Source: a virus. From it: a DNA stretch of 64,000 nt. The notes under the pieces were generated by a model that ran no database searches, had not been told where the DNA came from, and was given only the letters and a program-made list of their open reading frames with translations. The translations under genes and the position numbers were made by a program. Shown in pieces: positions 14,493 to 55,657 of the stretch (position 1 is its first letter; every line of letters begins with the position of its first letter). The DNA lies in the UHGV virus genome UHGV-0125682. The stretch is one strand, 5' to 3'.

Positions 14493-14510
14493 AAGTTAAA
14501 TTTCTAACAT
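14493..14510 (-). promoter_or_regulatory. Operator-like motif (AAGTTAAATTTCTAACAT)
   Basis: Instance of recurring 18-bp motif AAATTAGTTTTCTAACAT. Confidence 0.4.
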
Positions 14511-14597
14511 AGTGTATTTATATACACTGTTGATCCTGGTGGATGGGATCGAGTAGGATCGCGGTCACTGCTCCGGTAGCGACTGCCAAAAAAGCAA

Positions 14598-14620
14598 AAG
14601 CCGCTGAGAAGCGGCTTTTT
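14598..14620 (+). terminator. Rho-independent terminator
   Basis: AGCCGCT-GAGA-AGCGGCT followed by TTTTT. Confidence 0.7.
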
Positions 14621-14682
14621 GGGTGTATAAATCCACTGCCATAGATTTATACGGTAGATAGATTTTTTCACGGAACTATCTG

Positions 14683-15645
14683 GTGAGTATTTTAAATTCA
14701 GTTTCAGTAACTTTCAACACTTCTGAGTATAAAAACAACACTGAATACCACAAAAAAATCAAAGGTCATCAGTTGAGTTTTTTTGCTCGTCATAGCGGTC
14801 TTCTTTCCCCTTCACATAGCGCCATTATTGCCGAGTTCGCCAACCTGGCAGGGTCTACCGATGAATACATGATCCGTCGCTCATATGCTGATATGTCCGA
14901 GATTACAGGACGCAGTATTTCTACTGTGCGCCGGGCATTTGCTGAAGCGACGAAGTGCGGAATGCTTGTTAAGCAACATCAGGTAGCGAATAACAATGCC
15001 CAGGTGTGTAACGTATATCGGTTTACGACACAATTTCTCCACTTCATTCATGTAGCAATGGAGATAGGGGGTAAGCAGGGCATCAAATTTGCCAACGCCA
15101 CAAAACTGGTTAAGCAGTTGATTTCAAAGGTTCGTTATTTTTTTGAAACTGGGAACCCCCTGTTCAAATTGAACAAGTCCCCCCATGTTCAAAATGAACA
15201 GCCAATAGAAAATAAGAGTTACTCTATAGCCAAAAGAAGAGAAAGATCATGCGCGGTTCAGCCAAAGGCTTCACCAGCAGATAGTTCTCAAACGGATAAC
15301 GGTGTACTGGATAAAAAACCAGTAATCAGGGAAGAACATACCAACCACTGCCTGGCGGCGGCAAAAGCGAGAGCTGCAAAGCGTCGTTCAGACGAGGGGC
15401 ACGCAAAACGGCAGGCTCTGTATCGTACCGCTGAAAAGCTGGCAAAAAAATTTGCATGGATACGTAGTGCCGCTACCGCAGTGAATAAGCCTAAACAATC
15501 CAGTGCCCTGGATTTCTCAATGGATTATTCTGGCTCCCAGGGGTGTGCAACCATTGGTGAAGCCTTTGACCTGATGAAACAGCGTGGCTATCGGTCTGAA
15601 TTTGACCGTGAGGATTGGTCAATCCCTGCGGGATTTAGGGGATGA
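14683..15645 (+). CDS. Putative replication initiator, winged-HTH (RepL-like)
   Basis: 320 aa; GTG start uncertain; wHTH-like SEITGRSISTVRRAFAEATKCGMLVK; twin palindromes inside the ORF. Confidence 0.4.
   Translation: MSILNSVSVTFNTSEYKNNTEYHKKIKGHQLSFFARHSGLLSPSHSAIIAEFANLAGSTDEYMIRRSYADMSEITGRSISTVRRAFAEATKCGMLVKQHQVANNNAQVCNVYRFTTQFLHFIHVAMEIGGKQGIKFANATKLVKQLISKVRYFFETGNPLFKLNKSPHVQNEQPIENKSYSIAKRRERSCAVQPKASPADSSQTDNGVLDKKPVIREEHTNHCLAAAKARAAKRRSDEGHAKRQALYRTAEKLAKKFAWIRSAATAVNKPKQSSALDFSMDYSGSQGCATIGEAFDLMKQRGYRSEFDREDWSIPAGFRG
15161..15200. other. Twin 15-bp palindromes inside RepL-like ORF (candidate origin or binding site)
   Basis: TGTTCAAATTGAACA and TGTTCAAAATGAACA, 25 bp apart, each preceded by a C5 run. 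Confidence 0.4.
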
Positions 15646-15698
15646 CCTGTGTGTCTACAAAACATCCCAATGATCGGAAAATGCTCGTTCGATGATTT

Positions 15699-15716
15699 GT
15701 GTTAGAAAATTAATTT
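15699..15716 (+). promoter_or_regulatory. Operator-like motif (GTGTTAGAAAATTAATTT)
   Basis: Recurring motif; upstream of icd/ant module. Confidence 0.45.
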
Positions 15717-16058
15717 GCTGTTTCTAAATCGGAATGTATGATCTGCATCATCGACTGAAGTCATCCATTGCTGAAATTTTTAGTTGATCTTCCATGTTTT
15801 CAGGCTTATATTCATGCCGTCGTAGCAAATTCTGCGACCGGGTTTGACAGCCTGAATACTTACGCGGACAACCGCACATTTCCGATATTGCGGTATTTTT
15901 GTGTCCGTAAAACCACGTTACGCCCGAATTATGGTGGGGCGTGATGGGGAGGCTTCGGCCTGCTGGTTTCGTAAGTGCCAGTCTGTCAACCCTGTCACGT
16001 CCTGCCACCTGTTTGACAGCGGGTCGCAGGTTGTTTATCAACTTACGAGGCCGTAACT

Positions 16059-16283
16059 ATGGTTAATGCCAATCCTTGCTCACGCCCAGAATTCATCTGG
16101 CGTTTCCACTCCCTGCAAAAACACTGCGATCACTTCGCAATTGCCGCAACCGAAAAAGAAGCCCGTTCTCTGATCCCTGATCAGTATGGTGTTCTTACTG
16201 GTCGTTTCTCTACTTCCCCACAACCAAACACTAATCCCTGGTATCGCAATATTACCAATCCCGGAATTGCGGAGGCACACTGA
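16059..16283 (+). CDS. Small protein paralogous to 56458-56673 (Icd-like position upstream of antirepressor)
   Basis: 74 aa; shared motif EFIWRF.S.QKH......AATE.EARS with the second copy; stop overlaps next start. Confidence 0.45.
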   Translation: MVNANPCSRPEFIWRFHSLQKHCDHFAIAATEKEARSLIPDQYGVLTGRFSTSPQPNTNPWYRNITNPGIAEAH

Positions 16284-16990
16284 TGGAAATCTGCATTCTT
16301 GAAAAGCCATCAATGACCAGCATTGAGATCGCGGAGCTGGTGGGAAGTCGTCACTCTGATGTTAAACGCAGCATCGAAAGACTTGTTGCTAAAGGAGTTA
16401 TCCAACATACGCCATTGGCTACAGTTGAGAATAATCAATCACTTAGCCCTAATAAATACACAAAAGCCTATTTCTTCGAAGGCGAGCAAGGCAAGCGCGA
16501 TAGTATTGTCGTCGTCGCGCAGCTCTCTCCCGAATTCACCGCCCGGCTGGTGGACCGCTGGCGCGAACTGGAAGAACAAGTACGCCAGCCGTTGACCGAA
16601 ATAGAGATGATCGCCGCAATGGCTGCAAATGCAGTTCAGCAGCAAAAGCGGCTTCATGTTGTTGAGTCAAAGGTTAGTCAGGTGGTAGAAACCGTCGAGC
16701 AAATCAAGAAGGGCAACATGCCAGATGGTTACATTGGCTACCGCCAGCTGGCTGCGAAATGTGGACTGACCGAAGCCAAATGCCGCAACCTGGTTAATGC
16801 TTACCGGATTCCCACCGATACACATGAGTTTTTAACTCCAGAGGGGGTATTGTCGCGTCGTTCCATCGTGGCCTTATCTCCCTTCATGAATGCTTTTAAC
16901 CGGATGATGTCGGAGGCTGAACACCGAGGAAAACGCTGGTATCACCCCAAAATGGGGCAATTCCAGGTGATCGGTTGGGGAGGTGAGTGA
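16283..16990 (+). CDS. Rha-family phage regulatory protein / antirepressor (Ant-like), lacking C-terminal domain
   Basis: MTSIEIAELVG.RH..VKR... Rha-type N-terminus; ~75% identical to 56673-57614 but stops early. Confidence 0.7.
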   Translation: MEICILEKPSMTSIEIAELVGSRHSDVKRSIERLVAKGVIQHTPLATVENNQSLSPNKYTKAYFFEGEQGKRDSIVVVAQLSPEFTARLVDRWRELEEQVRQPLTEIEMIAAMAANAVQQQKRLHVVESKVSQVVETVEQIKKGNMPDGYIGYRQLAAKCGLTEAKCRNLVNAYRIPTDTHEFLTPEGVLSRRSIVALSPFMNAFNRMMSEAEHRGKRWYHPKMGQFQVIGWGGE

Positions 16991-17187
16991 TGGACATCAT
17001 GCAGGCGGTAAAAAAAATCAGGGAAGGACAGGCTGAAGTGTGCCGCCGTAAAGCATGGAGTGTTGGTGTATGGGCCTGGCCTGATAATTACTCTACTACC
17101 GGATGGTTTTGTATTAATGGACTCCAGATCCGGGAAGTTGATTTATCGACGGCTGATATAGTCGGTAATGATTGGATCGTGACTTGA
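16987..17187 (+). CDS. Separate ORF matching the C-terminal domain of the intact antirepressor paralogue
   Basis: 66 aa ...CRRKAW.VGVWAWP... matches C-terminus of 56673-57614; different frame from 16283-16990. Confidence 0.4.
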   Translation: MMDIMQAVKKIREGQAEVCRRKAWSVGVWAWPDNYSTTGWFCINGLQIREVDLSTADIVGNDWIVT

Positions 17188-17195
17188 AGCGTGAT

Positions 17196-17220
17196 GCCCC
17201 GGCCTGGCCGGGGCTTTTTT
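17196..17220 (+). terminator. Rho-independent terminator
   Basis: GCCCCGGCC / GGCCGGGGC stem followed by TTTTTT. Confidence 0.7.
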
Positions 17221-17705
17221 CATGCCTCATTAGTTGAGGTTGCTGCGTCTCCGACTGGTAACAGAGCGGTATTGCGTGGTTCGCCAGCAGGCCAGCGATA
17301 GCCAGACACTCTTGATGTTGGGAATGCACGAATATTAACCGCATCCCCCTGGTTCCCACCCAGGACAAGCAGATCGCCATTGGCGCGGCGTCCGACAACG
17401 AAGCCTACGTGCCCACCGCCTACGCGGGTAAATACAACGATACATCCGTATGCCGGTGTATCTAATTTCTCGCCCCAATCCAGATAGGATTTTGCCGACT
17501 CAAATCTTGTTGAGCGGATGCCTACACGTTCCAGCATTGCACCGACAAATGCTGCGCACCACGGCGTTTCATCGTCTTTAATTCCGCCGCGCTTGATGTC
17601 GCGCCAGAACTGAACGATTTCAGGGTTGTGTTTAGCGCCTTTTATTTCAGTCAGGCCAATGTGCTTACGGGCTTCAATTAGCCAGCGAGGTTCAATGTTT
17701 GCCAT
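17220..17705 (-). CDS. Putative peptidoglycan hydrolase (CHAP / NlpC-P60-like)
   Basis: 161 aa; ...TPWCAAFV... and ...GGHVGFVVG... resemble Cys/His hydrolase motifs; not a T4-type lysozyme. Confidence 0.45.
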   Translation of the reverse strand: MANIEPRWLIEARKHIGLTEIKGAKHNPEIVQFWRDIKRGGIKDDETPWCAAFVGAMLERVGIRSTRFESAKSYLDWGEKLDTPAYGCIVVFTRVGGGHVGFVVGRRANGDLLVLGGNQGDAVNIRAFPTSRVSGYRWPAGEPRNTALLPVGDAATSTNEA

Positions 17706-17855
17706 ATTTTTCTCCCGGTCATGGGTTAATAAGTAGGCAAACTATGGGGAGTATGTGATTTTGACGGTAGTATCGTCCCCCTGAAAATAACATTCTCCAT
17801 ACCCTCTCAACCGTACCGCATAGCGGAATTTTTACGGTTTAGAGGGGGAAATCCT

Positions 17856-20800
17856 TTGGACAAATTACTTCATTCAATCAGTGAAGCCTCCAGCTTAGGC
17901 GAACTGATTGAAATTGTTAGTCGGTTGCATAAATTACGTGCTGTTGCGACCTTTGGCGTCAGGAAAGCCGATGGCGTCAGTATTCAGAAAACACGCCGTG
18001 CAGCAAACAATGCCGCAGTAAATCTTCTTAATTCCCTTCCGCCCGGCTTCGATGGGGCGAAATTAACTGACGAACAACGTCAGATTCTTGCTGGGTATAC
18101 CGGTGAAGGCGGCCTGACAGATGGTGAGGGCAGCCAATACGAATACTACACGCCACAGTTTATGGCTGAAGGTATATGGGATCTGTTTGCTGACTACGGT
18201 ATTGATGGCGGGCACGTACTGGAACCATCAGCGGGCACAGGTATTTTCCAGGAGACAAAACGGCAGGGCATGATAATGACCAGCGCCGAACTGTCTCCGA
18301 TTTCTGGTCGAATAAACCAGCTTTTGCACCCGGAAGACGATGTGAATATCGGGGCGTTTGAGGCGCTGGCGGCGAAAGATGCAATGTATGACCACGCTGT
18401 TGGTAACGTACCGTTTGGTGAAGGGCGTTCCGGCGTTGCCGGGCTTGATCCGGCATATGCAAACGAGAAGAACGTTGGCAATTACTTTGTGCTGCGCACG
18501 ATCGACAAGGTTAAGCCAGGTGGGCTTATCGTATTGGTGGTGCCGAATGGCATGACCGATGGTACGAAATATAAAAAATTGCGCGATAAAGTCAGCCGTA
18601 AAGCGGAATTTTTGGGCGCACATCGTATGCCTTCCGGTACGTTCAGCGAATCTGGAACAGATACCGTGGTGGACGTATGGGTATTGCGTAAACACCCGGA
18701 AACCTTCCTGGAGATGATCCCCGACACGGATGATGCAACGCTCAAATCGGCAAACGTCCTTTGGGATACCTTCCTCAAAGGGAAATGGTTTACAACCGAT
18801 GGGAAGCGATTTGTTTACGGCGACATGGAACGTACCAGCTTCCGCAATACCCTGGTGGTGAAAAAAGACGGTCGTGTATCCAATGAGTCGATGAAAACCG
18901 CGCTATCTCGTCGCTTTGATAGTCGCATCAATTGGGATTTGCTCGGCGTAACTACTCAGGCATGGCAGGGCGCGAAAGTGGGCGATAAACGCCTTGTAGG
19001 CGGTATCTGGCATGAGTTTGATGGTCTGAAATGGGTTAAGGACACGACAACCAAATCCTCCGCGCTTGATGTAAGTCGATATGGTGTTTCGACGTTTGGC
19101 GATCTGCAGATCGCGTTCCAGTCAACAAACGGGATTCTGGCTTTGTCATGGGACCAGATATCGGCGATCGCGTCCGACTATCCATCGGTTGTCAGTGATG
19201 AAGTGGCAGCAATGATTCGCTTTGCTGGCAAACAGCGAGAAAAAGACAGGGAGCGCGTTATGCGCGGTGCGTTGATAGGGCAGTTGATCAACAAGGCACT
19301 TGATTTGCGTAACCTGGGGGTGAACGTTGATGACAAACTGGCAGATGCATCCCGCCTGGCGGCAGCAGAAGTTGCGAAGTATGGACCACCGCACGCGATT
19401 AAGCTGAATGGGCTTGCTGAAGCTGGCGCTAAAAACTGGATGACGTTCACTGGCAATGTGAAACAGGATGGTTCCACTTCTGACCTTCTGGCAGGGCGAC
19501 TTGATGTAACGGATGGTGCTGCCGGTATTGACTTTACGCGTCCTGAACAAGTGATAGCACATCTTTTTAGTGATGTAGCCCTTAATCCTATAACGCTGGG
19601 CGACTTTCGTGAGGCGTTTGCTGGTGAACTGCCAGAGGACGACGACGCGGTCCTTGAATACCTGGCGAAATTTGATGATATCGCTATTGATGGGTATGGC
19701 TGTCTGCTGCCGATGGACCGCGCCACCAGCGGCGATGTTGCAACCAAAACAGCACTGCTGGTGGGCTGGCGTGATGCGTCAACAGGTGAGCAGAAAGCGA
19801 ACTTTGAGCGTCAGTTGGCGAAAATCGAAGAGAAACGCATTTTCACGCCACTAAATAAAGTCACCGTTAATCTGAATGCCCGCTGGCTGGATCGCCGCTT
19901 GATAAAAGAGTTCCTGGCAGAGCAGGGCTATGACGAGTTTAAGTACACTGAACCTGATCTGAAGGTCGTCGATGGCATTCTGGTATCTCCGGACGATTAC
20001 GAAGGTAAGGACGGGGTATTTACCGGCTATCAGCTACGAACCGTAAACGGCAAAAACGGGAATGAGTTCAAGAAGGCCAACAATAAAGACGGCTTCCTGA
20101 ACCAGTTAGAAAACTACCTGAACGGTGTTAAACCGCGTGGGCAGAACGCTAACGAGTACCTGGATAAAATTGCTCAACTGGAAGTTAGTTTTAACGACTG
20201 GTTACGCACTCACCCGCAGGCTGATCAGATAGCCCGCGAGTATAACGACGCATTCAATGGTTTCATTCCGTTCACGCATTCTGACGCACCGCTTGGCCTG
20301 GAAGGGCTTAGTGGAAAGCGCATTCCTCTTACTTATCAGAATGAAGAAGTTCGGCGCTTGTCAGAAGATGGGCGCGGCATCATGGGATTTGGTACCGGGC
20401 TGGGTAAAACCACGACCGCGCTTGCGCTTGAGGCGTATAACTTCGAAACAGGTCGCACTAAACGCACGTGTATTGTTGTTCCGAAGGCGGTTTATCAGAA
20501 CTGGTATCACGAGGCACAGAGTTTCTACAGTGCTGATGCCTTCGCCAATATGATGTTTATCGGTTTGGATGAAGTTCGTGATGACAGCGGAAATATTCTG
20601 ACCGCGCCGGTGCTTGATGAAAATGGCGAACCACGCCTCGACAGTAACGGGCAGCCTCTTACCAGAAATGTTGTGAAAGAGTCCGCCAGCGCCGTTATCG
20701 TTCAGCGTATGAACATGATCCCGTCGTCAAATTGGCGAACGGTCATCATGACAAAAGAACAATTCGCGTCTATCCCGCTACGAGAAAAAACCATCGAGGA

Positions 20801-23800
20801 GAACTCACAGCAAGCTGTCTTTAATGCTGTGGAAATGGGGCGTCTTGACCTGGCGTCCGGTAAACACCGTGATGCGCAGAAGAAGAACAAGATTAAGGAT
20901 CAGGCCGCGAATACCGGTACAACGAAGAAGCAGAATATCCCGTACTTTGAGGATATGAACTTCGATAGCGTGATTGCCGACGAGGGGCATAATTACCGCA
21001 ACTCCTTTAATGCCGGGCGTGAAGCGGGACAACTGGCATATTTGCCTAACCCGGCAGTATCCAAGATGGCCCGCGACATGGCTGTAAAAGCTGCGTACAT
21101 GATGAAACGCAACAACGGGCGTGGTGTAGTCATGCTGACGGCAACTCCGCTGGTGAACAGTCCGATTGATGCCTTCAACATGCTGTCTACTGTCATTCCG
21201 CAGGAAGAGTGGATGCGCATGGGTATTGTTACGCCGGATGATTTCGTTCGCGTGTTCGGCAAAACAGCCACAGTTCAGGTTCAGAAAATTTCCGGTGAGG
21301 TGGAAGAGAAGCAGGGGCTGGTGGGCTTCCAGAACCTTGATGGTCTGCGTGGTATTTTCCACCGTTGGACCACTCTGAAGACTGCCGCAGATGTCGGAGC
21401 GACGGTTAAAATTCCCGATATCATCGAGAACACCTTGCAGATCCCGATGACAGGGGAGCAGGAGGCTGCTTATGAAGAGCTTCGTAAGCGTGCTCAGGAG
21501 TTAAGTCGCAATGATGAGCTGACAGTCGATGAAAACGGGCATATCACTAACGACAAACCGGATGATTTCATCTTCTCCATCATCCGCGACATGGATAAGG
21601 TTGCTATAGATCCGGATCTGTATGCCAGTGCGATTACATTCCAGTTCCCCGTTGAGCTTGCAGACAAGGTAAAAGCTATTGCTGATGCCCTGCCAAAAGT
21701 CGCAGGCGGTAAAGTGGCAGATGATGCAGACGAGGCCGAAGAAGACGGCGCTGGTGGACTGGTCAGTACGCGTACCAGCAAGGTAGTGAAGACCACCTTT
21801 AGTGAACATCCGGCGCATGTTGAAATACGCGCCAGCATTGAACTGGAAGCTGAAATACTGAAGGCCATTGCTGCCGCCGGGATTGATCTGCAGCAGGTAT
21901 CACACCCCATCCCACCGAAGTATGCCGCGCTGATCGAAAACCTTCGTGAAGGTCTGAAGAACGGTAAACAAATTGTCTTCATTGATGAAAAAGCCCAGCA
22001 CCAGAAGCTGCGCCGTATTATCGCCAGTGCACTGCAAATGCCGGAGCAGGAGATAGGCATTATCAATGCGACGACCGTTAGCCAAGCTGGCGGCATCAAG
22101 CTGAAGAAGGTGAATAAACCGACTGAACCTACTCCGAATAAAAACGGTGAATACAAAGAAGGGGCATGGGAAACCTACTACAGCAAACTTGCCCAATATG
22201 AGGATTATCTCTCAGCTAAAAATGATGCTGGCCTTGAGGGCATGGAAGGTATTGCCGCCGACTATAACGAAGGTCGCACGCGCATCATAATCTGTAACAA
22301 GAAGGCTGAAGTAGGTATTAACCTGCACATCGGGACAACCGATATCCACCACCTGACACTACCCTGGACACCAGCCAGTATCGACCAACGAAATGGGCGC
22401 GGTGCGCGCGTAGGGTCACCGCAAGAGAAGGTCAATGTTCACTACTATTGTGGCAAAGGCACATTCGATGACTTCCGTCTGGATACGCTTAAACGTAAGA
22501 AAGACTGGATCAAGATGGTGATGACCTCCGACATGTCAGAGATCGCCAATGGTGATGCGGATGATGCTGATGAACGCGCCATTATGCTGGCGGCAAACCC
22601 GGAAGAACGCCGCGCAATCATGGCTCGCCAGGCGCAAGAGCGTGAAGAACGTCTGAAACTGAAAGCACAGCGCGAGGCCAACAATGCTCTCGATATCTAC
22701 CTGAAAGCGGCAAACGCCGCCGGAAAAGATATCGGCATGATGGAGACAGAACTGAAAAGCGCGATGGAACAGATAGAGTATTACCAGCGAAATCTTGACG
22801 ACCTGATAAAAGCGGGTACGAACAGGAATGGGCAAAAATACGCGCTTGAGCAGTTGAGTAGCTACAGAAAACGTGCGCGGGTGCTGCGGTTTGCGATCAC
22901 CAGGGCAAAAGACGCGGATACCATAATGAAACGCTCTCGTGGTGATGTGGAGCGCGCTATTAAGTCTGGTGTGCTGGATATCAGTATCGATGTTATTCAG
23001 AACCCACAGGAATATATGCGCACTGACAAGAATATCCTGTTGCATAAAGGTAGTTATTACCGTGCAGTCATTGATGATCGCGAAACAACAGCGATTGTCC
23101 GGGTGGAAAAAATTGACGGTGAAAAAGCACAATACCTCTGCCGTATCGCCTGGCTGGATAGAGCAAGTCGTTACGCTCGAGCACCGGGGTCAATCGTTAC
23201 ATTGCCGTTTGACTCTGTGATTGAAGCGGTAACTTTTGAAGAGGGGGTAGCTGAATCGCGCGCAACGGCTGCGCGAGGTGTTCAGTGCCACCAGCTATCA
23301 ACAATACTTACTCGCGATCAGTTCTATGATGCTATTCGCAATGGGGTAATGAATGTTATTGCTGGTAAACCTGGTAATGCATGGGGCGGTGGGTCAGCTA
23401 TTAAATACTGGGCATATCGCACAGATGATGGTCAGATCGCGCTGTCATCGGCCTATGATGGCGTGATAGGCCAAAAAATCGGGCGAGCATCGGATATAGC
23501 ACCTGAGCGATGGATATATCCTGATGGCAACGACGAGGCGCTGAAGCGTGAAGTGGCAAAAATACAAGCCAGTGATAACCCGCTGAATATCGTGGACGGC
23601 GAGGGATTCCTCCAGGCATTGTATGGGTATGATTACACCCAGGGAATGCAGGCATGGGGCGCACAGGCAACGATGGATGATGTTGCCCATGAGTTCGAAA
23701 ACTGGATGGCTGGGCGTGGTCTGTCAGGTCGTTCGCTTAATAAAGTCACTTCTGAAGATATTCTTAGCTTGTTCCGCAAACCGTCCGGAGAAGGTCTGGA

Positions 23801-25163: not shown

Positions 25164-25165
25164 CC

Positions 25166-25562: not shown

Positions 25563-26057
25563 TTGTTGTTATTATTTCGCATATTTACTATCAATGGGTG
25601 TGTTAGAAAAATAGCGCGAAAGAGAAGGCGTCGCAGTGAATATTCTGAAACATCCCCACATGCCGCAGCTCTTAGAGAACTGGAGAAAAACCCAGATCTA
25701 ATCAAAAGGAACCATGAGCATTACGAGCAGGTTCGCGTCCTGGACTGGATGTATCGCAATATGCGTTATGTGTATGAGCATACTCACGCCACTCCAAACG
25801 GTGGCCTGCGAGGCATAAGGACGGCAATAAAAATGGTGGCAGAGGGCCAAAAGAAGGGATATCCCGATCTTTCTATAGACCTTGCTTGTGGGGGATACCA
25901 CGGAATGCGCATTGAGATGAAACATGGGAGAAATCGCCTGACTCCCGAACAACTCGTCTGGATGACTCGCCTCACAGAAGCCGGTTACTACTGCTTTGAG
26001 GCGCGCAGTGCCGCTGAAGCCATAAAAGCTATCACGGAGTATGTTTGTCTTGATTAA
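25563..26057 (+). CDS. VRR-NUC domain nuclease-like protein (start uncertain)
   Basis: ...PNGGLRGIRTAIKMVAEGQKKGYPDLSIDL...IEMKHGRNRLTPEQ...; no in-frame ATG before the domain, TTG at 25563. Confidence 0.5.
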   Translation: MLLLFRIFTINGCVRKIARKRRRRSEYSETSPHAAALRELEKNPDLIKRNHEHYEQVRVLDWMYRNMRYVYEHTHATPNGGLRGIRTAIKMVAEGQKKGYPDLSIDLACGGYHGMRIEMKHGRNRLTPEQLVWMTRLTEAGYYCFEARSAAEAIKAITEYVCLD

Positions 26058-26604: not shown

Positions 26605-26643
26605 TATTGCATCTTCCGATACCGTCATCAAACTAATAAAATA

Positions 26644-26660
26644 TGTTAGAAAACTAATTT
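26644..26660 (+). promoter_or_regulatory. Operator-like motif (TGTTAGAAAACTAATTT)
   Basis: Recurring motif upstream of 26682 gene. Confidence 0.45.
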
Positions 26661-27890: not shown

Positions 27891-27892
27891 TG

Positions 27893-27909
27893 TGTTAGAA
27901 ATCTAAAAT
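27893..27909 (+). promoter_or_regulatory. Operator-like motif (TGTTAGAAATCTAAAAT)
   Basis: Recurring motif at start of ORF-poor island. Confidence 0.4.
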
Positions 27910-28048
27910 CACAATTCGAATGTATTGATTGTGAAGGTAACTTAACATAGAATTTTCCTTGCTGGTGGGCGGTACCCACGTTTCGCTTGCTGGGCTTGAT
28001 AGTCACTTATTGGTTATTGTTCGCCCACCAGCATTTAACAAATTAAAG

Positions 28049-28065
28049 TGTTAGAAAAGTATAGT
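28049..28065 (+). promoter_or_regulatory. Operator-like motif (TGTTAGAAAAGTATAGT)
   Basis: Recurring motif. Confidence 0.35.
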
Positions 28066-29124: not shown

Positions 29125-29201
29125 GATGGTGTAGCTCAGTAGGATAGAGCAGCAGCCTTCTAAGCTGTCGGTCGGTGGTTCGAATCCACCCACCATCGCC
29201 A
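29125..29201 (+). tRNA. tRNA-Arg (anticodon TCT)
   Basis: Cloverleaf folded by hand: acceptor GATGGTG/CACCATC, D-arm GCTC..GAGC, anticodon loop CTTCTAA, T-loop TTCGAAT, 3' GCCA. Confidence 0.85.
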
Positions 29202-29203
29202 AT

Positions 29204-29279
29204 GCCGGTTTAGCTCAGTTGGTAGAGCGCCTGCCTTGTAAGCAGGATGTCAGCGGTTCGAGTCCGTTAACCGGCACCA
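29204..29279 (+). tRNA. tRNA-Thr (anticodon TGT)
   Basis: Acceptor GCCGGTT/AACCGGC, D-loop AGTTGGTA, anticodon loop CTTGTAA, T-loop TTCGAGT, 3' ACCA. Confidence 0.85.
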
Positions 29280-31116: not shown

Positions 31117-31192
31117 GGCCCTTTAGCTCAGTGGTTAGAGCTGGCGACTCATAATCGCACGGTCACCGGTTCAAGTCCGGTAGGGGCCACCA
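31117..31192 (+). tRNA. tRNA with CAT anticodon (Met or lysidine-modified Ile2)
   Basis: Acceptor GGCCCTT/AGGGGCC, D-loop AGTGGTTA, anticodon loop CTCATAA, T-loop TTCAAGT, 3' ACCA. Confidence 0.85.
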
Positions 31193-32221: not shown

Positions 32222-32613
32222 TGTACGAGACCACAAAATTAAGCATTCACGAAGTATCCAATGTGGAGTGGAATATCGTCACCTGTAAGATTGTATCGTG
32301 TAATGCTGCGCGTACTGATGCAGGCCATAAGAGCACGATAACAGGCTACATGGTAATGGCTTATAGGGGATTGAGAGTTCGCTTTATCTGGAAAGCTCGG
32401 CAATTGACACCATTCAGAGAGCCGTCAATGCCATTAGAGGTAGAACAGGATTATTTAAGCCTGCCGGAAATAGACGGTGCAACGCTGGTGGATTCTGATG
32501 GTCGTAAGGCTGATTTTGAAGTCAGCTTAAAGGTGGCGCAGGCCGTAATTAATAACTCACGTGGTAAGTGGATCGCTAAGGTAAAACACGGCGTTCGCTT
32601 ATCTCGCTGGTAG
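32221..32613 (+). CDS. Hypothetical protein
   Basis: 130 aa; start overlaps upstream stop. Confidence 0.5.
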   Translation: MYETTKLSIHEVSNVEWNIVTCKIVSCNAARTDAGHKSTITGYMVMAYRGLRVRFIWKARQLTPFREPSMPLEVEQDYLSLPEIDGATLVDSDGRKADFEVSLKVAQAVINNSRGKWIAKVKHGVRLSRW

Positions 32614-32645
32614 TGTTAGATGAATGGAATTAATTTTCTAATATA
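32613..32645. promoter_or_regulatory. Paired operator-like motifs in inverted orientation
   Basis: TGTTAGA...TAATTTTCTAATA upstream of 32722 gene. Confidence 0.4.
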
Positions 32646-36011: not shown

Positions 36012-37049
36012 TTACCAGAGCTTCGCGGCGTACTGCGTTTGGGGGAATGTGTATCCGTAACGTTCTTCGATTGCTTTGCCGTATTTTTTACGAGCTTCAT
36101 TCAGTTTAATGCCGGTCAGGTCGTCTCCAGAGGCCATCATTACGTCTAACAATTCCAGATCCATTTTATCCAACCTTGCCATTGCTTCACGTGATGTACG
36201 TATCTTACGCTCAATGATATGGCGAATAGCCGGATCGGCATCCTCCAGCATCTTAGCGGATTTCTGCTTAAGGCTTTCATTGCGAATATCGATGTTCCTT
36301 AAGATGTACGACTTCGCAACGTAGCTTGGCTGGTGTTTTTCCAGGTCACGAACACGATATAAGTTAAAATCGCCGAGAAGGCTGCATGGTACCGATTCGA
36401 CGCCAGAATAAATTGTAATGCTCCGGCGTTCACCAACATTATTGACAACGGGGATCGTTGTCTTCGGTAGTCTTGCGAAAACCAATGCGCCATGTGCGCC
36501 AACTCTAAAGCGAGAAAGGGCATTGCTGCCTTCGATGTTTGTTGTCAGCACAACATCTGTATATGCCTCTTTACGCGCCCGGTAGATCTCGCCTTCAGGC
36601 TCAGCTTCAAAGAAGCGCTGTTCTTCTTCAAGAGCACCTACGATTTGAGAAAAAACCCTATTTTTCAGGCTTTTCTTTATGATTTTGTCGTATTTTTTTA
36701 GCAATTGTTCACGTGTAAATGTACGTGTTGTTGTAGCGCTTTGCACAACGACATGCGTGCTTTGATTGGTGTCCTCAATGATGAATGGGATCGGAGAATA
36801 TACAGACTCAACAATGTTCGACGCTTTGCCGTCGGCATCGCGGCACATGTCAACGAAGGCTTTCCATTCAGCAAGACATTTTTCAGCTTCTTCTAATATG
36901 TTTTGGTCATGCGTTAATGCAACATGGCGGAATTCCTCGCCAGCATAACTGGTATCATGGAAAACAGAGTTTGCGACCACCAGCTCTTTCCACCGTTCAG
37001 CGGTTTGCAGGAACCGTTTGTACTCTTTCTCGATCGACTTCTTACTCAT
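36012..37049 (-). CDS. Putative C1-type immunity repressor (by position between pacB and rox)
   Basis: 345 aa; divergent from dre; operator-like motif 12 bp upstream of its start. Confidence 0.4.
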   Translation of the reverse strand: MSKKSIEKEYKRFLQTAERWKELVVANSVFHDTSYAGEEFRHVALTHDQNILEEAEKCLAEWKAFVDMCRDADGKASNIVESVYSPIPFIIEDTNQSTHVVVQSATTTRTFTREQLLKKYDKIIKKSLKNRVFSQIVGALEEEQRFFEAEPEGEIYRARKEAYTDVVLTTNIEGSNALSRFRVGAHGALVFARLPKTTIPVVNNVGERRSITIYSGVESVPCSLLGDFNLYRVRDLEKHQPSYVAKSYILRNIDIRNESLKQKSAKMLEDADPAIRHIIERKIRTSREAMARLDKMDLELLDVMMASGDDLTGIKLNEARKKYGKAIEERYGYTFPQTQYAAKLW

Positions 37050-37060
37050 TATTCCTACTC

Positions 37061-37078
37061 GATTTAGTTTTCTAACAT
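37061..37078 (-). promoter_or_regulatory. Operator-like motif (GATTTAGTTTTCTAACAT)
   Basis: Recurring motif immediately upstream of putative repressor gene. Confidence 0.45.
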
Positions 37079-37259
37079 AAAATTACTATGACAAATTTAT
37101 GTCGAATAACAGGGTGAGTAAAGGATCGAACTGTGATTTTTTGTCATCAATTTTAGAAAACCAACCGTAGAAACCACACTTCGCAAATTAAAGACCATGA
37201 AGGCAACGTGTTACTGGTCATCATCAATCTATGATGGATTAAAAAAAATCGGCATTTTA

Positions 37260-37291
37260 TAACTTTAAATAATTGGCATTATTTAAAGTTA
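37260..37291. other. rox: rox-type recombination site (14-bp inverted arms, 4-bp spacer)
   Basis: TAACTTTAAATAAT-TGGC-ATTATTTAAAGTTA; matches rox as recalled; 150 bp upstream of Cre-like gene. Confidence 0.8.
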
Positions 37292-37443
37292 GGCTATAAT
37301 CATGTGTAGATGAACAGTGTTGACATCACTGAAAATACGTGCCTCGAATCAAAGGCTTGTATTTTGAAAATTAACTTATAGCTACCCTGTCATTTTTATA
37401 TTTTTCGCGTAGCGTCATCTGTATATAGAGGTCAAATAGTTTC

Positions 37444-38472
37444 ATGGGCGAATTAATTATCTCTGGCAGTTCCGGTGGTTTTCTGCGCAACATTGGCAAA
37501 GAGTACCAGGAAGCCGCAGAAAACTTTATGCGGTTCATGAATGACCAGGGAGCTTATGCGCCGAATACTCTGCGCGACCTCCGTTTGGTGTTTCATTCCT
37601 GGGCGCGCTGGTGTCACGCTCGCCAGCTTGCCTGGTTTCCGATCTCACCAGAAATGGCCCGCGAGTATTTTCTTCAGCTGCATGATGCCGATCTGGCTTC
37701 GACCACCATTGATAAGCACTACGCCATGCTGAACATGCTGCTTTCGCATTGTGGCCTTCCACCACTTTCGGATGATAAAAGTGTTTCTCTGGCTATGCGG
37801 CGCATCCGGCGCGAAGCGGCAACTGAAAAAGGCGAACGAACAGGCCAGGCTATACCGCTGCGGTGGGACGATCTGAAACTGCTCGACGTCCTGTTGTCCA
37901 GGTCTGAACGGCTGGTGGCCCTGCGCAACCGGGCTTTTCTCTTTGTTGCATACAATACGCTGATGCGTATGTCGGAAATCTCGCGTATTCGTGTAGGAGA
38001 TCTGGACCAAACAGGTGACACTGTCACGCTACATATTTCACACACGAAGACAATAACGACCGCCGCCGGGCTTGATAAGGTGCTTTCCCGTCGCACTACC
38101 GCTGTGCTGAATGACTGGCTGGATGTTTCCGGGCTTCGCGAACATCCTGACGCAGTGCTGTTCCCGCCGATACACCGTAGCAATAAGGCCAGGATCACGA
38201 TAACGCCCCTTACTGCACCTGCAATGGAGAAAATATTCAGCGACGCCTGGGTGTTGCTGAATAAAGGAGATGCTACGCCAAACAAAGGAAGATACCGGAC
38301 GTGGACCGGGCATAGTGCACGCGTCGGGGCCGCTATCGATATGGCTGAAAAGCAGGTCTCTATGGTGGAGATTATGCAGGAAGGAACCTGGAAGAAACCG
38401 GAAACACTTATGCGGTATCTGCGCCGTGGCGGCGTGTCTGTGGGGGCTAATAGCCGCCTGATGGATTTATAA
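37444..38472 (+). CDS. dre: Tyrosine site-specific recombinase, Cre family (Dre-like)
   Basis: 342 aa; Cre-like ...WTGHSARVGAAIDMAEKQVSMVEIMQEGTWK...; 34 bp cognate inverted-repeat site upstream. Confidence 0.9.
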   Translation: MGELIISGSSGGFLRNIGKEYQEAAENFMRFMNDQGAYAPNTLRDLRLVFHSWARWCHARQLAWFPISPEMAREYFLQLHDADLASTTIDKHYAMLNMLLSHCGLPPLSDDKSVSLAMRRIRREAATEKGERTGQAIPLRWDDLKLLDVLLSRSERLVALRNRAFLFVAYNTLMRMSEISRIRVGDLDQTGDTVTLHISHTKTITTAAGLDKVLSRRTTAVLNDWLDVSGLREHPDAVLFPPIHRSNKARITITPLTAPAMEKIFSDAWVLLNKGDATPNKGRYRTWTGHSARVGAAIDMAEKQVSMVEIMQEGTWKKPETLMRYLRRGGVSVGANSRLMDL

Positions 38473-38488
38473 ATTAAATTTCTAACAC
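38471..38488 (-). promoter_or_regulatory. Operator-like motif (AAATTAAATTTCTAACAC)
   Basis: Recurring motif just after dre stop. Confidence 0.4.
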
Positions 38489-45711: not shown

Positions 45712-45721
45712 GTGTTACTCC

Positions 45722-45985: not shown

Positions 45986-45986
45986 A

Positions 45987-48720: not shown

Positions 48721-48724
48721 CTCA

Positions 48725-49720: not shown

Positions 49721-49762
49721 AATGTATACCGACTCTGTTTTGTTCCGAGCGGTAAAATAATA

Positions 49763-49793
49763 TGTTAGAAAACTAAAATCAATGTTCTAACAC
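49763..49793. promoter_or_regulatory. Operator-like motifs (TGTTAGAAAACTAAAAT plus TGTTCTAACAC)
   Basis: Recurring motif between two genes of the leftward operon. Confidence 0.45.
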
Positions 49794-49817
49794 ATTTTGA
49801 GTGCGTAAATGATTTGA

Positions 49818-51311: not shown

Positions 51312-51556
51312 TGTGGTGGCTCCTGCTTTTCTGCCTTTAATACCATGCGAGAACCATCATCCAGCTCCCAATTAATTTCACCGCCTTCAGCCATGACTAG
51401 ATGCCAAACGAGTTGTGCGGCCTCGTTGGTTACATCACGACCGCGATCATTGCCGACACGACGTTTTGTTCCATCCCCTAAGTCACGCATTTTTGCCAAC
51501 ACGATGGTTTTTGATAGCGGTGAAAAACCAAGCTGTAGTCGTGCGGTATTACTCAC
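51308..51556 (-). CDS. Hypothetical protein
   Basis: 82 aa. Confidence 0.4.
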   Translation of the reverse strand: MSNTARLQLGFSPLSKTIVLAKMRDLGDGTKRRVGNDRGRDVTNEAAQLVWHLVMAEGGEINWELDDGSRMVLKAEKQEPPQ

Positions 51557-52194
51557 TGTTTGCCTCCTTTTCGAAGCTGGTCAGCGAACCTATCAGCTGC
51601 ATCCGCGCAAGCAGAAGCAACGGAATCAAAAAATGGATCATCTCCGGTATCGCGCATCGTCAAAGCGAATGCCTCCACCCCTTGTGCCTGTATTTCTACA
51701 AGGTATGCCTTAGATGTAGTGCTTTTCGCCTCGCCTAATTCGTTATGAGCGATGTTCGCTATACATGCGATGTCTATATCTGGATGATTAATTGGGCAAT
51801 GGCTAAGAATTGCCTCAAGTGCTGCTTTTTTGCTTTGGCATTCCGCCACCATCGCCCCGCAATTGCTTTCATATTCGGCAATACGCTGTTTAGCAGCCTC
51901 CAGCTCAACACGCAGCTTCTCAAGCGTTAGAGCCATCTCCATGTTCTCGTCCAGCAGTTCAATCACATCAGGATCGCTATCATCAACTACTGTTATGCGC
52001 GATTTTTTGTAATGCTCGTCAGCATAAGTTCGTCCAGTTTTGAAGCATCCGTCGTCCTCCATGCCGGAACAGGCATAAACAACATGTGATCCAGATATGC
52101 GCTGCATTGACATTTCCTCGCCACAAACAGAGCATTTAGGCGCTGGTTTCGGTGAAAAACGTTCACGTAACGTATGATAGTAAAGCTCGCTCAC
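51553..52194 (-). CDS. Hypothetical protein, N-terminal zinc ribbon, paralogue-family C-terminus
   Basis: 213 aa; CSVCG...YACSG; ends ...FADQLRKGGKQ. Confidence 0.5.
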   Translation of the reverse strand: MSELYYHTLRERFSPKPAPKCSVCGEEMSMQRISGSHVVYACSGMEDDGCFKTGRTYADEHYKKSRITVVDDSDPDVIELLDENMEMALTLEKLRVELEAAKQRIAEYESNCGAMVAECQSKKAALEAILSHCPINHPDIDIACIANIAHNELGEAKSTTSKAYLVEIQAQGVEAFALTMRDTGDDPFFDSVASACADAADRFADQLRKGGKQ

Positions 52195-52988
52195 TGGCTG
52201 CCTCCTTTGCGAAGCTGTTCAGCGATATCTTCGAGAACGCCATCAGAGAATGAGCGGTCAAAATCGCCTTCCCGCGCATTAGCCATAAACTCAGTAGAGG
52301 TAAGAATCATCCGGGCAATATCCGCGGCGTTCTTCGCAGTATCATCAATAAAACCAGCTTCCCAAGCAGCCAGCATTCTGTTCGCCACAAAGTAAGCGCC
52401 CTCCTTGCGTGCTTCAGTCTTCACTTCATCCAGGAAAGTGTCGGTCGCAGGAGTGGTTTTTTGTGGTGATAGGGCGATACGAATTGTTTCAAGAGCTGGA
52501 TCTATTTCCACTGTTGGCACTTTGATAAAACCAAGCTGCACGCCATTCATAATGAACGTGCGGCGATCCTCACATATCGCCTTCAGTCTCGCATTCTCCG
52601 CAGCCAGCGCCGCGCGATTACCCTCCAGCTCTGCAATGCGCTGTTTTGCGGTATCAAGTTCAATCGATAATTTTTCCAACTGCTCTTTATGCTTCTTATA
52701 TTCCTGATATGCGTGCCAGGACTGACCTTTGCGCACACTATCAGTAATATCAGTAATCTGTTCTGGTGTTAGCGTAGTCAGTGGCTGTGCTGGGAAAATC
52801 AGCACTTTCCCGGAATCCCAATCAAAACCAGCGTGAATTGACTGAACCTCAACTGAGGGTGTTGAACCAATGCTGCCAGGCGAATGAACAACGATCGTTA
52901 CATCCATATCGCGACGATGGCTGTGGTTGTTGGACAAAATACGATTCACCAACTCAGAAAATTTGGAGAATTTCATGCGGAGCCTCAA
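52191..52988 (-). CDS. Hypothetical protein, paralogue family
   Basis: 265 aa; ...ATDTFLDEV...AEQLRKGGSQ. Confidence 0.5.
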   Translation of the reverse strand: MRLRMKFSKFSELVNRILSNNHSHRRDMDVTIVVHSPGSIGSTPSVEVQSIHAGFDWDSGKVLIFPAQPLTTLTPEQITDITDSVRKGQSWHAYQEYKKHKEQLEKLSIELDTAKQRIAELEGNRAALAAENARLKAICEDRRTFIMNGVQLGFIKVPTVEIDPALETIRIALSPQKTTPATDTFLDEVKTEARKEGAYFVANRMLAAWEAGFIDDTAKNAADIARMILTSTEFMANAREGDFDRSFSDGVLEDIAEQLRKGGSQ

Positions 52989-53395
52989 TATGCAAAATAG
53001 ACCGTTGCCACGCCGTTATAGTGATCAAACGATACGGCGTTTACTTCATAGCTGGCAGGGAGCTTCGATCCGAGAACATATCCGGGCCACGTTTTCCATG
53101 GAATTTCTCTACTCTCACTATCCCCATATACCGTACATCCAAGTGAACCTACAGCTTCATTAGAACGCGTGCCGCACGTTATGAATCCCAGATTTTGCTT
53201 ACTGCTCTTAATGGTGATTGAGTGAACGCTGGCTGATGCATTAGCAGCACGCTGTGCCTGTTGGTTTGCGATATTCGCAGAGTTCGCAGCAGCTACAGCA
53301 GCCGTAGTCGCGGCGGTAGAGGCTACAATAGCTGCTGAAGCATGCACTTGTTGGATATTCACCAACAATGCCGCGACAAAAATCATCTTCTTCAC
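52985..53395 (-). CDS. Secreted protein (signal peptide)
   Basis: 136 aa; MKKMIFVAALLVNIQQVHA. Confidence 0.5.
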   Translation of the reverse strand: MKKMIFVAALLVNIQQVHASAAIVASTAATTAAVAAANSANIANQQAQRAANASASVHSITIKSSKQNLGFITCGTRSNEAVGSLGCTVYGDSESREIPWKTWPGYVLGSKLPASYEVNAVSFDHYNGVATVYFAY

Positions 53396-53880
53396 TTGTC
53401 AGCTCCTTTGCGAATCTGTTCCGCCCATTCTTCAAGGGATTTCTCCGCATATTCACCGGACAGGCCATCAATCGGGTGCGGTTCATTAGCCAACTCTTCT
53501 TTCGCTGACAGAATCATGCGTGTAACGTCGAAAACTTCACGTAAAGACTTATTGATAAATCCGTGGTTGAAAGCAGCAGCAAGACGGCTTGCGGTATAGT
53601 TAATCCCCTCGTTGCGAGCCTCCGCACGAATTTCAGCCAGAAAAGCATCGGTGGCTGGAGTTTCGCTGTGGTGCAGGGCATCGTTGATAATCATTGCAGC
53701 AACTCCGGCCTGCCCTGCATCCGTGACCGACACATGCTCAAGAGTTACAGCCATTGCATGTTTCAGCCCAGCATTCTCCGCCGCCAGCGCCGAGCGTTCT
53801 TTCTCAAGTCGGGAAATTTCCGTTACATACTCAGCGTTACGCTCTGCCAGTTGTGCTGGCGTTAAACCTTCAGACTTCAT
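53392..53880 (-). CDS. Hypothetical protein, paralogue family
   Basis: 162 aa; ...ATDAFLAEIRAEARNEG...AEQIRKGADK. Confidence 0.5.
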   Translation of the reverse strand: MKSEGLTPAQLAERNAEYVTEISRLEKERSALAAENAGLKHAMAVTLEHVSVTDAGQAGVAAMIINDALHHSETPATDAFLAEIRAEARNEGINYTASRLAAAFNHGFINKSLREVFDVTRMILSAKEELANEPHPIDGLSGEYAEKSLEEWAEQIRKGADK

Positions 53881-54187
53881 GTACTCTCCTTTCGAAATAA
53901 ACGTACTGATTAATCATGCTCAAGGGCATTTCGAGTTTTTCTGCGATCTCACGGCGGGGAACACCACACCGATGAAGCTGCCGTGCCAGTTCTATATCGC
54001 CCTGCCGGTATTTGGCTGACGGGTGAAAGTCTCCTTTCAGAATCATGCAGATCCGCAGTTGCCGCGCTTTGGTTCTGACAGCACTACCGGTACGCCCGAT
54101 CAGCCTCCCAATACTCTCGACTGTCATAGTCCCGGCGCACTGGCGGAGTATCATGATTTCTGCCCTTCCCCATCCCCGCCAGCTCAC
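53870..54187 (-). CDS. Putative DNA-binding protein (HTH)
   Basis: ~95-105 aa; HTH-like ...VPRREIAEKLEMPLSMINQYV. Confidence 0.45.
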   Translation of the reverse strand: MSWRGWGRAEIMILRQCAGTMTVESIGRLIGRTGSAVRTKARQLRICMILKGDFHPSAKYRQGDIELARQLHRCGVPRREIAEKLEMPLSMINQYVYFERRVHEV

Positions 54188-54798
54188 GCAGAACTCCTTC
54201 TAACCAAAAGAACGCCATCTTCAGAAACAACGTTGCAGGACTTCAGGTAATTCATTGCCTCTTTCGGTAATGGATTCTTTGGATCGGCGTTTGCCAGGGA
54301 TTTCGATAACCTCATGATAAATTTGATCATTACCTTCTGGCGGAGCTTGTGCTCATGAGATAAAGACAGGTAATAGGAAATGGTATGGGCTAAACGCTCA
54401 CGAAGCTGTTCTGTGCCGTGATATACAGCAGCGATATCACGCAGTGCATTGACCAGTTCCCGGTAAATATGCGGAGCAACCTGGCATTCAATGTTGGTTG
54501 GTGACTCATAAATTACAGTCAGCCCCAGCTTTTCAGCCAGCGCGTGCTCTGCACGAGCACCAATCGATTCCTCCCATCGATTGAGCAAGTAGATCGCATC
54601 AGCAGAACGCACCATTGCCAGGCAAATATCCATGTATTCACTCTGACAAAGGCCACCAGGTAACACAGCTGGATTCAGAACGATATGCCCTTCAGCCATC
54701 AGCTCGCTCGCTTTCGCATTAAACGCCGCACGGTTGTAGTCTGGATAACCAGTCATCGGCCCCGCGATGTAAATTTTCAAAACACGTCTCACCATCAA
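54184..54798 (-). CDS. Nucleoside 2-deoxyribosyltransferase-like (DUF4406-type) protein with extra C-terminal module
   Basis: KIYIAGPMTGYPDYNRAAF...GHIVLNPA...; C-terminal ...PHIYRELVNALRD...GTEQLRERL shared with 44206-45711. Confidence 0.55.
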   Translation of the reverse strand: MMVRRVLKIYIAGPMTGYPDYNRAAFNAKASELMAEGHIVLNPAVLPGGLCQSEYMDICLAMVRSADAIYLLNRWEESIGARAEHALAEKLGLTVIYESPTNIECQVAPHIYRELVNALRDIAAVYHGTEQLRERLAHTISYYLSLSHEHKLRQKVMIKFIMRLSKSLANADPKNPLPKEAMNYLKSCNVVSEDGVLLVRRSSA

Positions 54799-54989
54799 AA
54801 TTTCCCCAGCATCGTGACGAAAAACATCAGCACGGCAAAAAGCTCAATACCTAATTCAAGTAGCGCCAACGCCCCGAAAAAAAACACATAGAACAGGCCA
54901 ATCTCATTCACAGATGGCTGGTGGATCGCACTTAAAGCTATAAGCATCATGTCCTCCAAACATTTATCAGTGATGATATTAATGTTTTG

Positions 54990-55006
54990 TGTTAGAAAAT
55001 CAATTT
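54990..55006 (+). promoter_or_regulatory. Operator-like motif (TGTTAGAAAATCAATTT)
   Basis: Between the leftward operon and ref-like gene. Confidence 0.45.
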
Positions 55007-55067
55007 TGAATATCTAACTGCTTTGATCAATCATAGAAAAATCGCTGAAAAGTAAGAGGCAGCCATC

Positions 55068-55646
55068 ATGCAGAAACAGAGCTATTGGGAGAAACAGAGA
55101 CAAAAAGCCATGCAAAAATTGGCTGACCCAGCCTGGCGAGAGGAACAAAGGGCAAAGCGCCTTCAACAAGCTCAACGCCAGCAGCAGCGAGCGAGAGAAA
55201 AAGCCGCATCGCCTGAATATCGGCAAAAGAAAATTGAAAAAGCAAAGCAATATGAACAGCGGAGAAAAGATAAAGCTGTATCCGCTCCGTCCAAAAAAAC
55301 ACGCACGTCACGCGGCCTGAAAGGCAGATCACTCACAGCCGATGAACGCCGGATACAGACCGCTATCGGTGCTCTCCCCTGCATTGCCTGCCATATTCAC
55401 GGGCAACATAGCCCAGTGGTATCCCTGCACCATATCTTCGGGAGAACGGCAGAGAACGCGCATAAATATGTCCTCCCTTTGTGTAAATGGCACCACCAGT
55501 ACGCAGCGCCAGCCGAGGTCAGAGAACAATATCCCTGGCTGGTCCCTGTTCATGCTGACGGAAAAATAGGCGGAAAAGCAGATTTCATGCGGCACAATGC
55601 CGATGAAATGACGTTGTATCAGATGGCGATTGAGTTGATAAATTAG
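55068..55646 (+). CDS. ref: HNH-type nuclease, P1 Ref-like
   Basis: 192 aa; K/R/Q-rich N-terminal ~95 aa then ...CIACHIHGQH...HHIFG...PLCKWHHQ. Confidence 0.5.
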   Translation: MQKQSYWEKQRQKAMQKLADPAWREEQRAKRLQQAQRQQQRAREKAASPEYRQKKIEKAKQYEQRRKDKAVSAPSKKTRTSRGLKGRSLTADERRIQTAIGALPCIACHIHGQHSPVVSLHHIFGRTAENAHKYVLPLCKWHHQYAAPAEVREQYPWLVPVHADGKIGGKADFMRHNADEMTLYQMAIELIN

Positions 55647-55657
55647 TTTTCTAACAT
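55640..55657 (-). promoter_or_regulatory. Operator-like motif (AAATTAGTTTTCTAACAT)
   Basis: Exact consensus instance just after ref stop. Confidence 0.45.

Follow-up and report, generated by a model that had tools for sequence, protein, structure and literature searches.

A dispersed motif as the putative operator set of a D6-type C1 repressor in a P1-related phage-plasmid

The stretch of 64,000 nucleotides from virus genome UHGV-0125682 analysed here (the window) carries an 18-bp motif, AAATTAGTTTTCTAACAT, at twelve high-scoring positions scattered near the boundaries of genes. We propose that these sites are the operators of a D6-type C1 master repressor whose gene lies at 36012-37049, forming an immunity regulon in the style of phage P1 with a different DNA specificity. 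Judged from sequence and position, this reading has a probability of about 85%. The D6-type immunity group is a new member of the known P1-type regulon, in a phage with a published genome.

The motif and its sites in the window

The window contained nine matches to AAATTAGTTTTCTAACAT with up to three mismatches, against 0.05 expected, and none of 100 shuffles reached nine or more; the degenerate core TTANWTTTCTAAYAY with at most one mismatch was found 12 times, against 0.18 expected. A position weight matrix (PWM) derived from the motif sites gave 12 sites of 19-29 bits (Table 1), the top score in shuffled sequence being 17.8 bits. A thirteenth, weaker site (49776, plus strand) forms an inverted pair with the overlapping site at 49762. 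Every exact copy of TTTCTAAYA belongs to one of the 12 PWM sites. An earlier note on this DNA had counted at least 11 copies, which agrees with this census, and the positions 14,493 and 55,657 that it gave for the ends of the set are the true outer limits.

All motif sites lie in intergenic DNA or at gene boundaries. Crude calling of open reading frames (ORFs) assigned 90% of the window to coding sequence, and the remaining 6.1 kb (44% GC) held nine sites of at least 15 bits against 0.07 expected from composition-matched shuffles. The motif is thus above the AT-rich background, the comparison on which the earlier note had made its proposal depend. Sites touching the crude ORFs either overlapped a gene end by 2-7 bases or met an ORF that was doubtful or had a doubtful start. 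In the PWM scan, no sites were found before the lysis, dar and portal genes (1-14 kb) or the tail genes (57-64 kb).

Information content peaks in TTTCTAACA and is lower in the 5' arm, in which only TTA is well kept. The strand comparable with P1 reads RTGTTAGAAAAnTAATTT, that is, a conserved core, TGTTAGAAA, and a looser AT-rich arm. The motif had been described as asymmetric, which holds for most sites; three operators (lpa, pdcB, and ref/orf88), however, are 32-bp palindromes and the remainder are monovalent. The bivalent form is GTGTTAGAAA-N12-TTTCTAACAC, in which the two copies stand on opposite strands, 14 bp apart, and overlap by 4 bp at their AT-rich ends. In relatives, the bivalent arrangement was also observed at the pmgS/tRNA site.

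Several sites coincide with candidate promoters. The AT-rich end of the 15699 site overlaps a candidate -35 hexamer, TTTGCT (15714), which the promoter scan paired with the -10 hexamer TATGAT (15737), and the site lies about 107 bp upstream of the c4 a1b1 targets located with Rfam. The 25600 site overlaps the -10 element of the candidate promoter TTTACT-N17-AAAAAT, and the true start codon of the pmgM-like gene downstream is likely GTG at 25637. The hexamers of the candidate promoter at 28048 score 5+5; the stretch of about 1 kb from this operator to the first tRNA contains no annotated feature. Upstream of c1, a conserved TTTACT-N17-TAAATT would set the 37061 operator at about +8 to +25. The core of this operator is invariant in five relatives with C1 68-100% identical (alignment A1), and it is present also where C1 is 51% and 44% identical. 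Within the weak distal site of c1, TTTTCTAA stays invariant although the surrounding stretch varies, and its counterpart in two relatives (L014 and L015) is a full TTTTCTAACA.

The other sites are likewise kept in relatives. The site at 38471 is conserved even in a remnant on plasmid pK91, and the Citrobacter plasmid L013 has TTCTAAGGCTT at the same spot. The pdcB pair also occurs in L009, L010, and L007, and the ref/orf88 palindrome is conserved (alignment A2) and stronger in L010 and L007. The gene contexts that the earlier note had listed for the sites proved correct apart from its single ref site: a location near ref was right, and the sites there are two, one in the divergent ref/orf88 region and one at the ref 3' end.

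Table 1 Putative operator sites and other features of the window, and positions of a second repeat in two related plasmids. Scores in bits are from the PWM; L numbers are labels of related sequences.
Feature	Position	Strand	Context	Score and remarks
Operator	14493-14510	+	between pro and repL	25.7 bits; overlaps candidate promoter TTAAAT-N17-TATATA; conserved in D6 and L007
Operator	15699-15716	-	upstream of first immI module	28.7 bits
First immI module	c4-a1b1 15806-15858; C4 RNA 15927-16012		followed by icd and ant	Rfam
Operator	25600-25617	-	upstream of pmgM-like gene	19.2 bits; position conserved in L007, L009, L010, and D6
Operator	26643-26660	-	22 nt upstream of pmgS-like gene (26682)	28.7 bits; exact consensus match; in all D6-type relatives
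Operator	27892-27909	-	directly after pmgS, upstream of tRNA island	24.9 bits; bivalent in L010
Operator	28048-28065	-	between -35 TTAACA and across -10 TATAGT of candidate rightward promoter to tRNA island	21.4 bits
tRNA island	29125-29279, 31117-31192	+		Arg(tct), Thr(tgt), Met(cat)
Bivalent operator	32613-32644	.	upstream of lpa (start 32722)	GTGTTAGATGAATGGAATTAATTTTCTAATAT; strong half 32627 (+) 23.9 bits, partner 4.7 bits; both halves conserved in four genomes (alignment A3)
c1, D6-type C1 repressor, 345 aa	36012-37049	-		100% identical to annotated D6 C1
Operator	37061-37078	+	12 nt upstream of c1 ATG	26.8 bits; reads ATGTTAGAAAACTAAATC on c1 sense strand
Weak distal operator-like site	37150-37167	-	about 72 bp upstream of proximal c1 operator, opposite orientation	8.6 bits; GGTTTTCTAAAAT
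Operator	38471-38488	+	3' end of dre, upstream of orf117-orf116-dut operon	27.2 bits
Bivalent operator	49762-49793	.	upstream of pdcB-like gene (start 49720, - strand)	halves 49762 (-) 26.3 bits and 49776 (+) 17.6 bits; 14-bp offset
Bivalent operator	54989-55020	.	divergent region between leftward orf88 accessory operon and ref (start 55068)	halves 25.6 (54989, -) and 5.9 bits
Operator	55640-55657	+	overlaps last 7 bases of ref, upstream of small ORFs and second immI module	28.7 bits; exact match
Second immI module	isrK-like 56193; C4 RNA 56316-56403		followed by icd2 and ant2	Rfam
wwTTCTAAGGCTTTww in L013 (Citrobacter plasmid NZ_CP099368)	5775, 13614, 15156, 18374, 19886, 26215, 29272, 39800 (L013 coordinates)			
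wwTTCTAAGGCTTTww in L011 (Leclercia)	4063, 8081, 9478, 19212, 24325, 27782 (L011 coordinates)			

The D6-type repressor, its relatives, and P1

Sequence comparison identifies the window as part of a plasmid prophage (phage-plasmid) that resembles phage D6 and is related to P1. The immC region (lpa, pacA, pacB, c1, rox, dre, and dut) shows approximately 97-98% DNA identity to Escherichia phage D6, and a 20-kb test segment was covered up to 81%, at 96-97% identity, by dozens of plasmids of about 90 kb from E. coli and Salmonella. The gene map was carried over from the D6 record, which is written in the reverse direction relative to the window. In this map, c1 is flanked by pacB and rox/dre. Its product is a distant homolog of P1 C1 (21% identity, E 2e-8), and precomputed Pfam annotations place all homologs of the D6-type C1 in PF27008 (Phage_P7_repressor_C1); this family was seen in the precomputed annotations only, C1 giving no match in a local Pfam scan. 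Together with the identity to D6 C1, these findings bear out the earlier assignment of 36012-37049 as a C1-type repressor. A tblastn search recovered this C1 type in 149 PLSDB plasmids, which fell into identity classes of at least 99%, 80-90%, 60-80%, and below 60%. Beside c1, a near-consensus sigma-70 promoter, TTGGCA-N16-TATAAT (11 of 12 matches; window 37260-37300), starts within rox (about 37260-37291) and faces dre.

The genome of phage D6 (MF356679, AY753669) carries the same 12 sites and three more outside the span of the window, about 16 in total. One of the additional sites lies upstream of orf52, and hrdC-dmt is preceded by the other two as a bivalent pair. D6 and the window differ in the tRNA island and in some accessory genes. 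No operators are annotated in either D6 GenBank record, and a full-text literature search for the motif and for D6-like operators gave no relevant result; the main D6 papers were outside that search, so an earlier description is possible.

The sites stand at the same kinds of places as the C1 operators annotated in P1, as a comparison with the P1 operator sites proposed in the earlier note revealed. P1 Oc1a-e correspond to the site at 37061 upstream of c1; Oc4, about 115 bp from a1 and overlapping the -35 element of P2c4, corresponds to the site at 15699, which has the same layout; OrepL at the kilA-repL promoter corresponds to 14493, Olpa at Plpa to 32613-32644, and Oref to 54989-55020. P1 Omat overlaps the ref 3' end as does the site at 55640, and the two have the same orientation if the window motif is read core-first. 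The targets common to P1 and the D6-type regulon are c1, c4-icd-ant, repL, lpa, ref, the ref 3' end, and hrdC/dmt. The window has additional targets, namely pmgM, pmgS, the tRNA island (two sites), the operon after dre, and pdcB, and we know of no P1 counterpart of these sites. P1 and P7 share with the D6 type a PF27008 repressor encoded beside the pac genes and a Cre-like recombinase, together with many dispersed, essentially asymmetric operators of approximately 17-18 bp, each made of a conserved core and an AT-rich arm and occurring in monovalent and bivalent forms. In the bivalent P1 Oc1ab, the cores likewise lie outside, and the AT-rich tails overlap by 6 bp, compared with 4 bp in the D6-type sites.

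The operator sequences themselves are unrelated, except for a possible shared pentamer (TCTAA/TTAGA) and an AATTT end. The operators annotated in the P1 GenBank record yield the consensus ATTGCTCTAATAAATTT; the consensus that the earlier note had given for P1 is right according to these operators and to a paper that also gives it and that describes 22 dispersed C1 operators in P1 (PMC8546580). The P1-type operator ATTGCTCTAATAAATTT with up to three mismatches had no match in the window, and no D6-type site was found in the 64 kb of P1 scanned. The distinct immunity specificity suggested in the earlier note fits both absences, and the sequences indicate that the D6-type system is heteroimmune to P1. 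How the motif is aligned with the P1 operators depends on the strand. As RTGTTAGAAAAnTAATTT, it begins with the core and finishes with AATTT, a layout that the P1 operators share along with the bivalent architecture, and its orientation then agrees with P1 at four places: c1, c4, ref, and the ref 3' end. With the strand AAATTAGTTTTCTAACAT, the element in common with P1 is the pentamer TCTAA, which also occurs in the Citrobacter-type motif described below. We prefer the reverse complement of AAATTAGTTTTCTAACAT for the alignment, without regarding the choice as settled.

Conservation was followed across relatives with increasingly different repressors. In plasmids with C1 90%, 80%, and 70% identical and in the pK91 remnant (68%), the core was kept unchanged at the same positions, so that these close variants do not discriminate and more distant relatives were needed. 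Intergenic alignments of c1-dre, ref, and lpa showed the cores as invariant islands in variable DNA. In two metagenomic contigs with C1 51% and 44% identical, TTTTCTAACA was present at c1 (both sites), lpa, the recombinase end, and pmgS, and the AT-rich arm was altered, e.g. AATCTATTTTTCTAACAC. The D6 motif was absent from the Citrobacter and Leclercia plasmids, in which C1 is about 29% identical. Another repeat, TTCTAAGGCTT (wwTTCTAAGGCTTTww), was found there upstream of c1 and of rdgC, at the 3' end of the recombinase, in the divergent region of ref, and behind pro; it probably represents a third class of operator in the C1 family. Positions are thus conserved while the sequence shifts with the repressor class, as expected for operators.

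The pK91 plasmid (L008; NZ_CP029871) is a conjugative IncFIB multiresistance plasmid of Salmonella Typhi in which positions 18558-21038 are a remnant of a D6-like element. The remnant comprises dut, the recombinase, c1, and a truncated pacB. Since both local operators are intact, its repressor may still be expressed and could confer immunity.

Proposed regulon and alternative explanations

In the prophage, C1 would occupy approximately 13 sites in the window, or approximately 16 in the whole D6 genome. The sites overlap candidate early promoters or fall just downstream of them, so that occupancy would block transcription of repL (lytic replication), both c4-icd-antirepressor modules, the late-gene activator gene lpa, ref, pmgM, pmgS, the tRNA genes, and two accessory operons, and of c1 itself by autoregulation. 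P1 C1 is understood to bind as a monomer; each single asymmetric site would presumably be taken by one C1 monomer, and the 32-bp palindromes would take two C1 molecules. From where the motif lies, how well it is kept, and how the repressor is related to P1 C1, all of which are observed, we infer that C1 is the binding protein, and likewise the exact promoters and the stoichiometry.

The D6-type circuit appears to work without Coi or Lxc and to be a simpler variant, consisting of C1 and two C4-RNA/icd/antirepressor modules, because homologs of Coi, Lxc, and Ant1 were not found. With P1 Coi and Lxc as queries, tblastn (E up to 1) gave nothing meaningful in the window and D6, where highly diverged or non-homologous substitutes are possible, and no Ant1 homologs were found in the window. 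Homologs of icd (two copies) and lpa were found there. A report on D6-like plasmids (PMC6799933) likewise states, with reference to the D6 genome paper, that an Lxc homolog is lacking.

Several observations weigh against the operator proposal. Between the 14493 site and repL lies an intrinsic-terminator hairpin, which makes direct control of repL uncertain, and about 550 bp separate the 55640 site from the second c4 module. Seven sites are co-directional with the gene downstream and five opposite. Promoter hexamer matches are weak or ambiguous in this AT-rich DNA, so that only candidate promoters could be assigned. Moreover, the backbone genes all diverge alongside C1, and the change of the motif in the distant plasmids therefore does not single out C1 as the binder.

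The motif might instead be a promoter element, either a sigma-70 element of the -35, -10, or UP type or a phage-specific early promoter box, read by RNA polymerase or an activator. In favour of this, the sites are rich in AT and lie close to promoters, and at several of them a -10 or -35 hexamer can be recognised in the AT-rich arm. A promoter element, however, is difficult to reconcile with the occurrence of the sites in both orientations and as palindromic pairs, or with distances to the start codon that range from 12 nt to several hundred. The invariant core is unlike either sigma-70 hexamer, one copy overlaps the ref 3' end exactly like P1 Omat, and the equivalent P1 positions are annotated C1 operators. 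We therefore consider a promoter element very unlikely. It is also unlikely, though a shade less so, that a different phage regulator binds the motif, such as Lpa at late promoters, a protein of the antirepressor modules, or a second repressor. The sites are linked to C1 by sequence and position, and the phage encodes other DNA-binding proteins. On the other hand, the absence of sites from the lysis/dar/portal and tail blocks speaks against a role at late promoters, lpa itself is preceded by a site, the c1 start has one at a distance of 12 nt, and the pK91 remnant keeps only c1-dre-dut, yet retains both local sites. The -22 box of P1 late promoters, AAGTKACT, was considered as an explanation and rejected; the motif is unrelated to it, and the window shows no enrichment of the box.

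Finally, chance or base composition could have produced the repeats in intergenic DNA that is rich in AT, or they could be a small dispersed element that regulates nothing. Intergenic DNA is indeed richer in AT than the window overall, but the excess of sites was obtained against intergenic shuffles of matched composition, the core is invariant across relatives while the flanks vary, and the site positions parallel the P1 operators. Given the shuffles and the conservation, we regard this explanation as refuted and its remaining probability as negligible. Binding by the D6-type C1 is the reading that we retain.

Neighbouring features, the predicted fold of C1, and implications

The two C4 RNAs of the window matched Rfam at 69.6 and 76.7 bits, and putative operators lie upstream of both immI-like modules, each of which is complete. 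The immI antirepressors in the window are of the Rha/Roi/KilA type, as opposed to Ant1 in P1. Between the repL-side operator and repL (14511-14625), a palindrome (AGTGTATTTATATACACT), three GATC sequences (14532-14566), and a terminator-like hairpin are all conserved. The hairpin (14596-14619) is of bidirectional type and shows compensatory changes in a relative; P1 too has Dam sites at its kilA-repL promoter. The D6 record lists tRNAs for Ser, Thr, and Asn, unlike those of the window; the difference between the tRNA sets suggests that the island is a variable cargo region. Among 9-mers, Chi (GCTGGTGG) and its extensions show the strongest over-representation across the window, as they also do in P1 and in every related plasmid examined; in the window, a single 9-mer reaches up to 17 copies.

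The D6-type C1 comprises 345 aa, compared with 283 aa in P1 C1. Its residues from about 283 to 345 (alignment A6) form a predicted C-terminal helical extension of approximately 65 residues that has no counterpart in P1-type C1; this extension might serve dimerisation at bivalent operators or contact with an antirepressor. An AlphaFold2 (AF2) model of C1 built with 21 family members had a mean predicted local distance difference test score (pLDDT) of 85.5 (82.7-85.5 over five models) and a predicted template modelling score (pTM) of 0.54. In a deeper homolog search, the D6-type alignment added one sequence, and a mixed-subfamily alignment was needed to reach P1-type C1.

When an earlier, poorer model of C1 was compared with the PDB using Foldseek, only four significant matches were obtained, all of them E. 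coli Tus-Ter complexes. For this predicted model the E values were 4.5e-7 to 1.6e-5, with about 306 aligned columns over the whole of Tus and a template modelling (TM) score of only 0.29-0.33. Sequence similarity between C1 and Tus was not detected, the hhalign probability being 2.5% and a profile search of PDB sequences giving no match at E up to 10. Three arginines that are invariant in the family (R41, R157, and R159) fall in predicted beta-strands of C1. Tus is a monomer that grips an asymmetric DNA site in a cleft lined by beta-strands; its role is replication-fork arrest, as opposed to transcriptional repression for C1. A Tus-like fold of C1, suggested by a predicted model with moderate scores, would fit monomeric recognition of asymmetric operators. 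Extending this to the family is tentative, and we hold it somewhat less probable than its contrary: the PF27008 repressors of P1, P7, D6, and their relatives may be Tus-fold proteins that clamp asymmetric sites as monomers through a beta-strand cleft, with immunity classes arising by re-tuning of the cleft, toward ATTGCTCTAAT in P1, TGTTAGAAA in D6, and TTCTAAGGC in Citrobacter/Leclercia. Among the papers searched, none connects C1 and Tus.

If the model is correct, the Tus fold would account for a long-standing oddity, namely that a monomeric repressor has asymmetric operators, and would tie this family of phage repressors to a replication-terminator protein. The three operator classes and the predicted Tus-like fold together offer a testable structural account of how asymmetric sites are read. 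D6-like plasmid prophages are common in E. coli and Salmonella, as the 149 plasmids with this C1 type indicate. The proposed operator set would define their immunity group and predicts which genes are silent in the lysogen. It would also provide a compact repressor/operator pair orthogonal to that of P1, alongside the widely used Dre/rox recombinase from the same locus.

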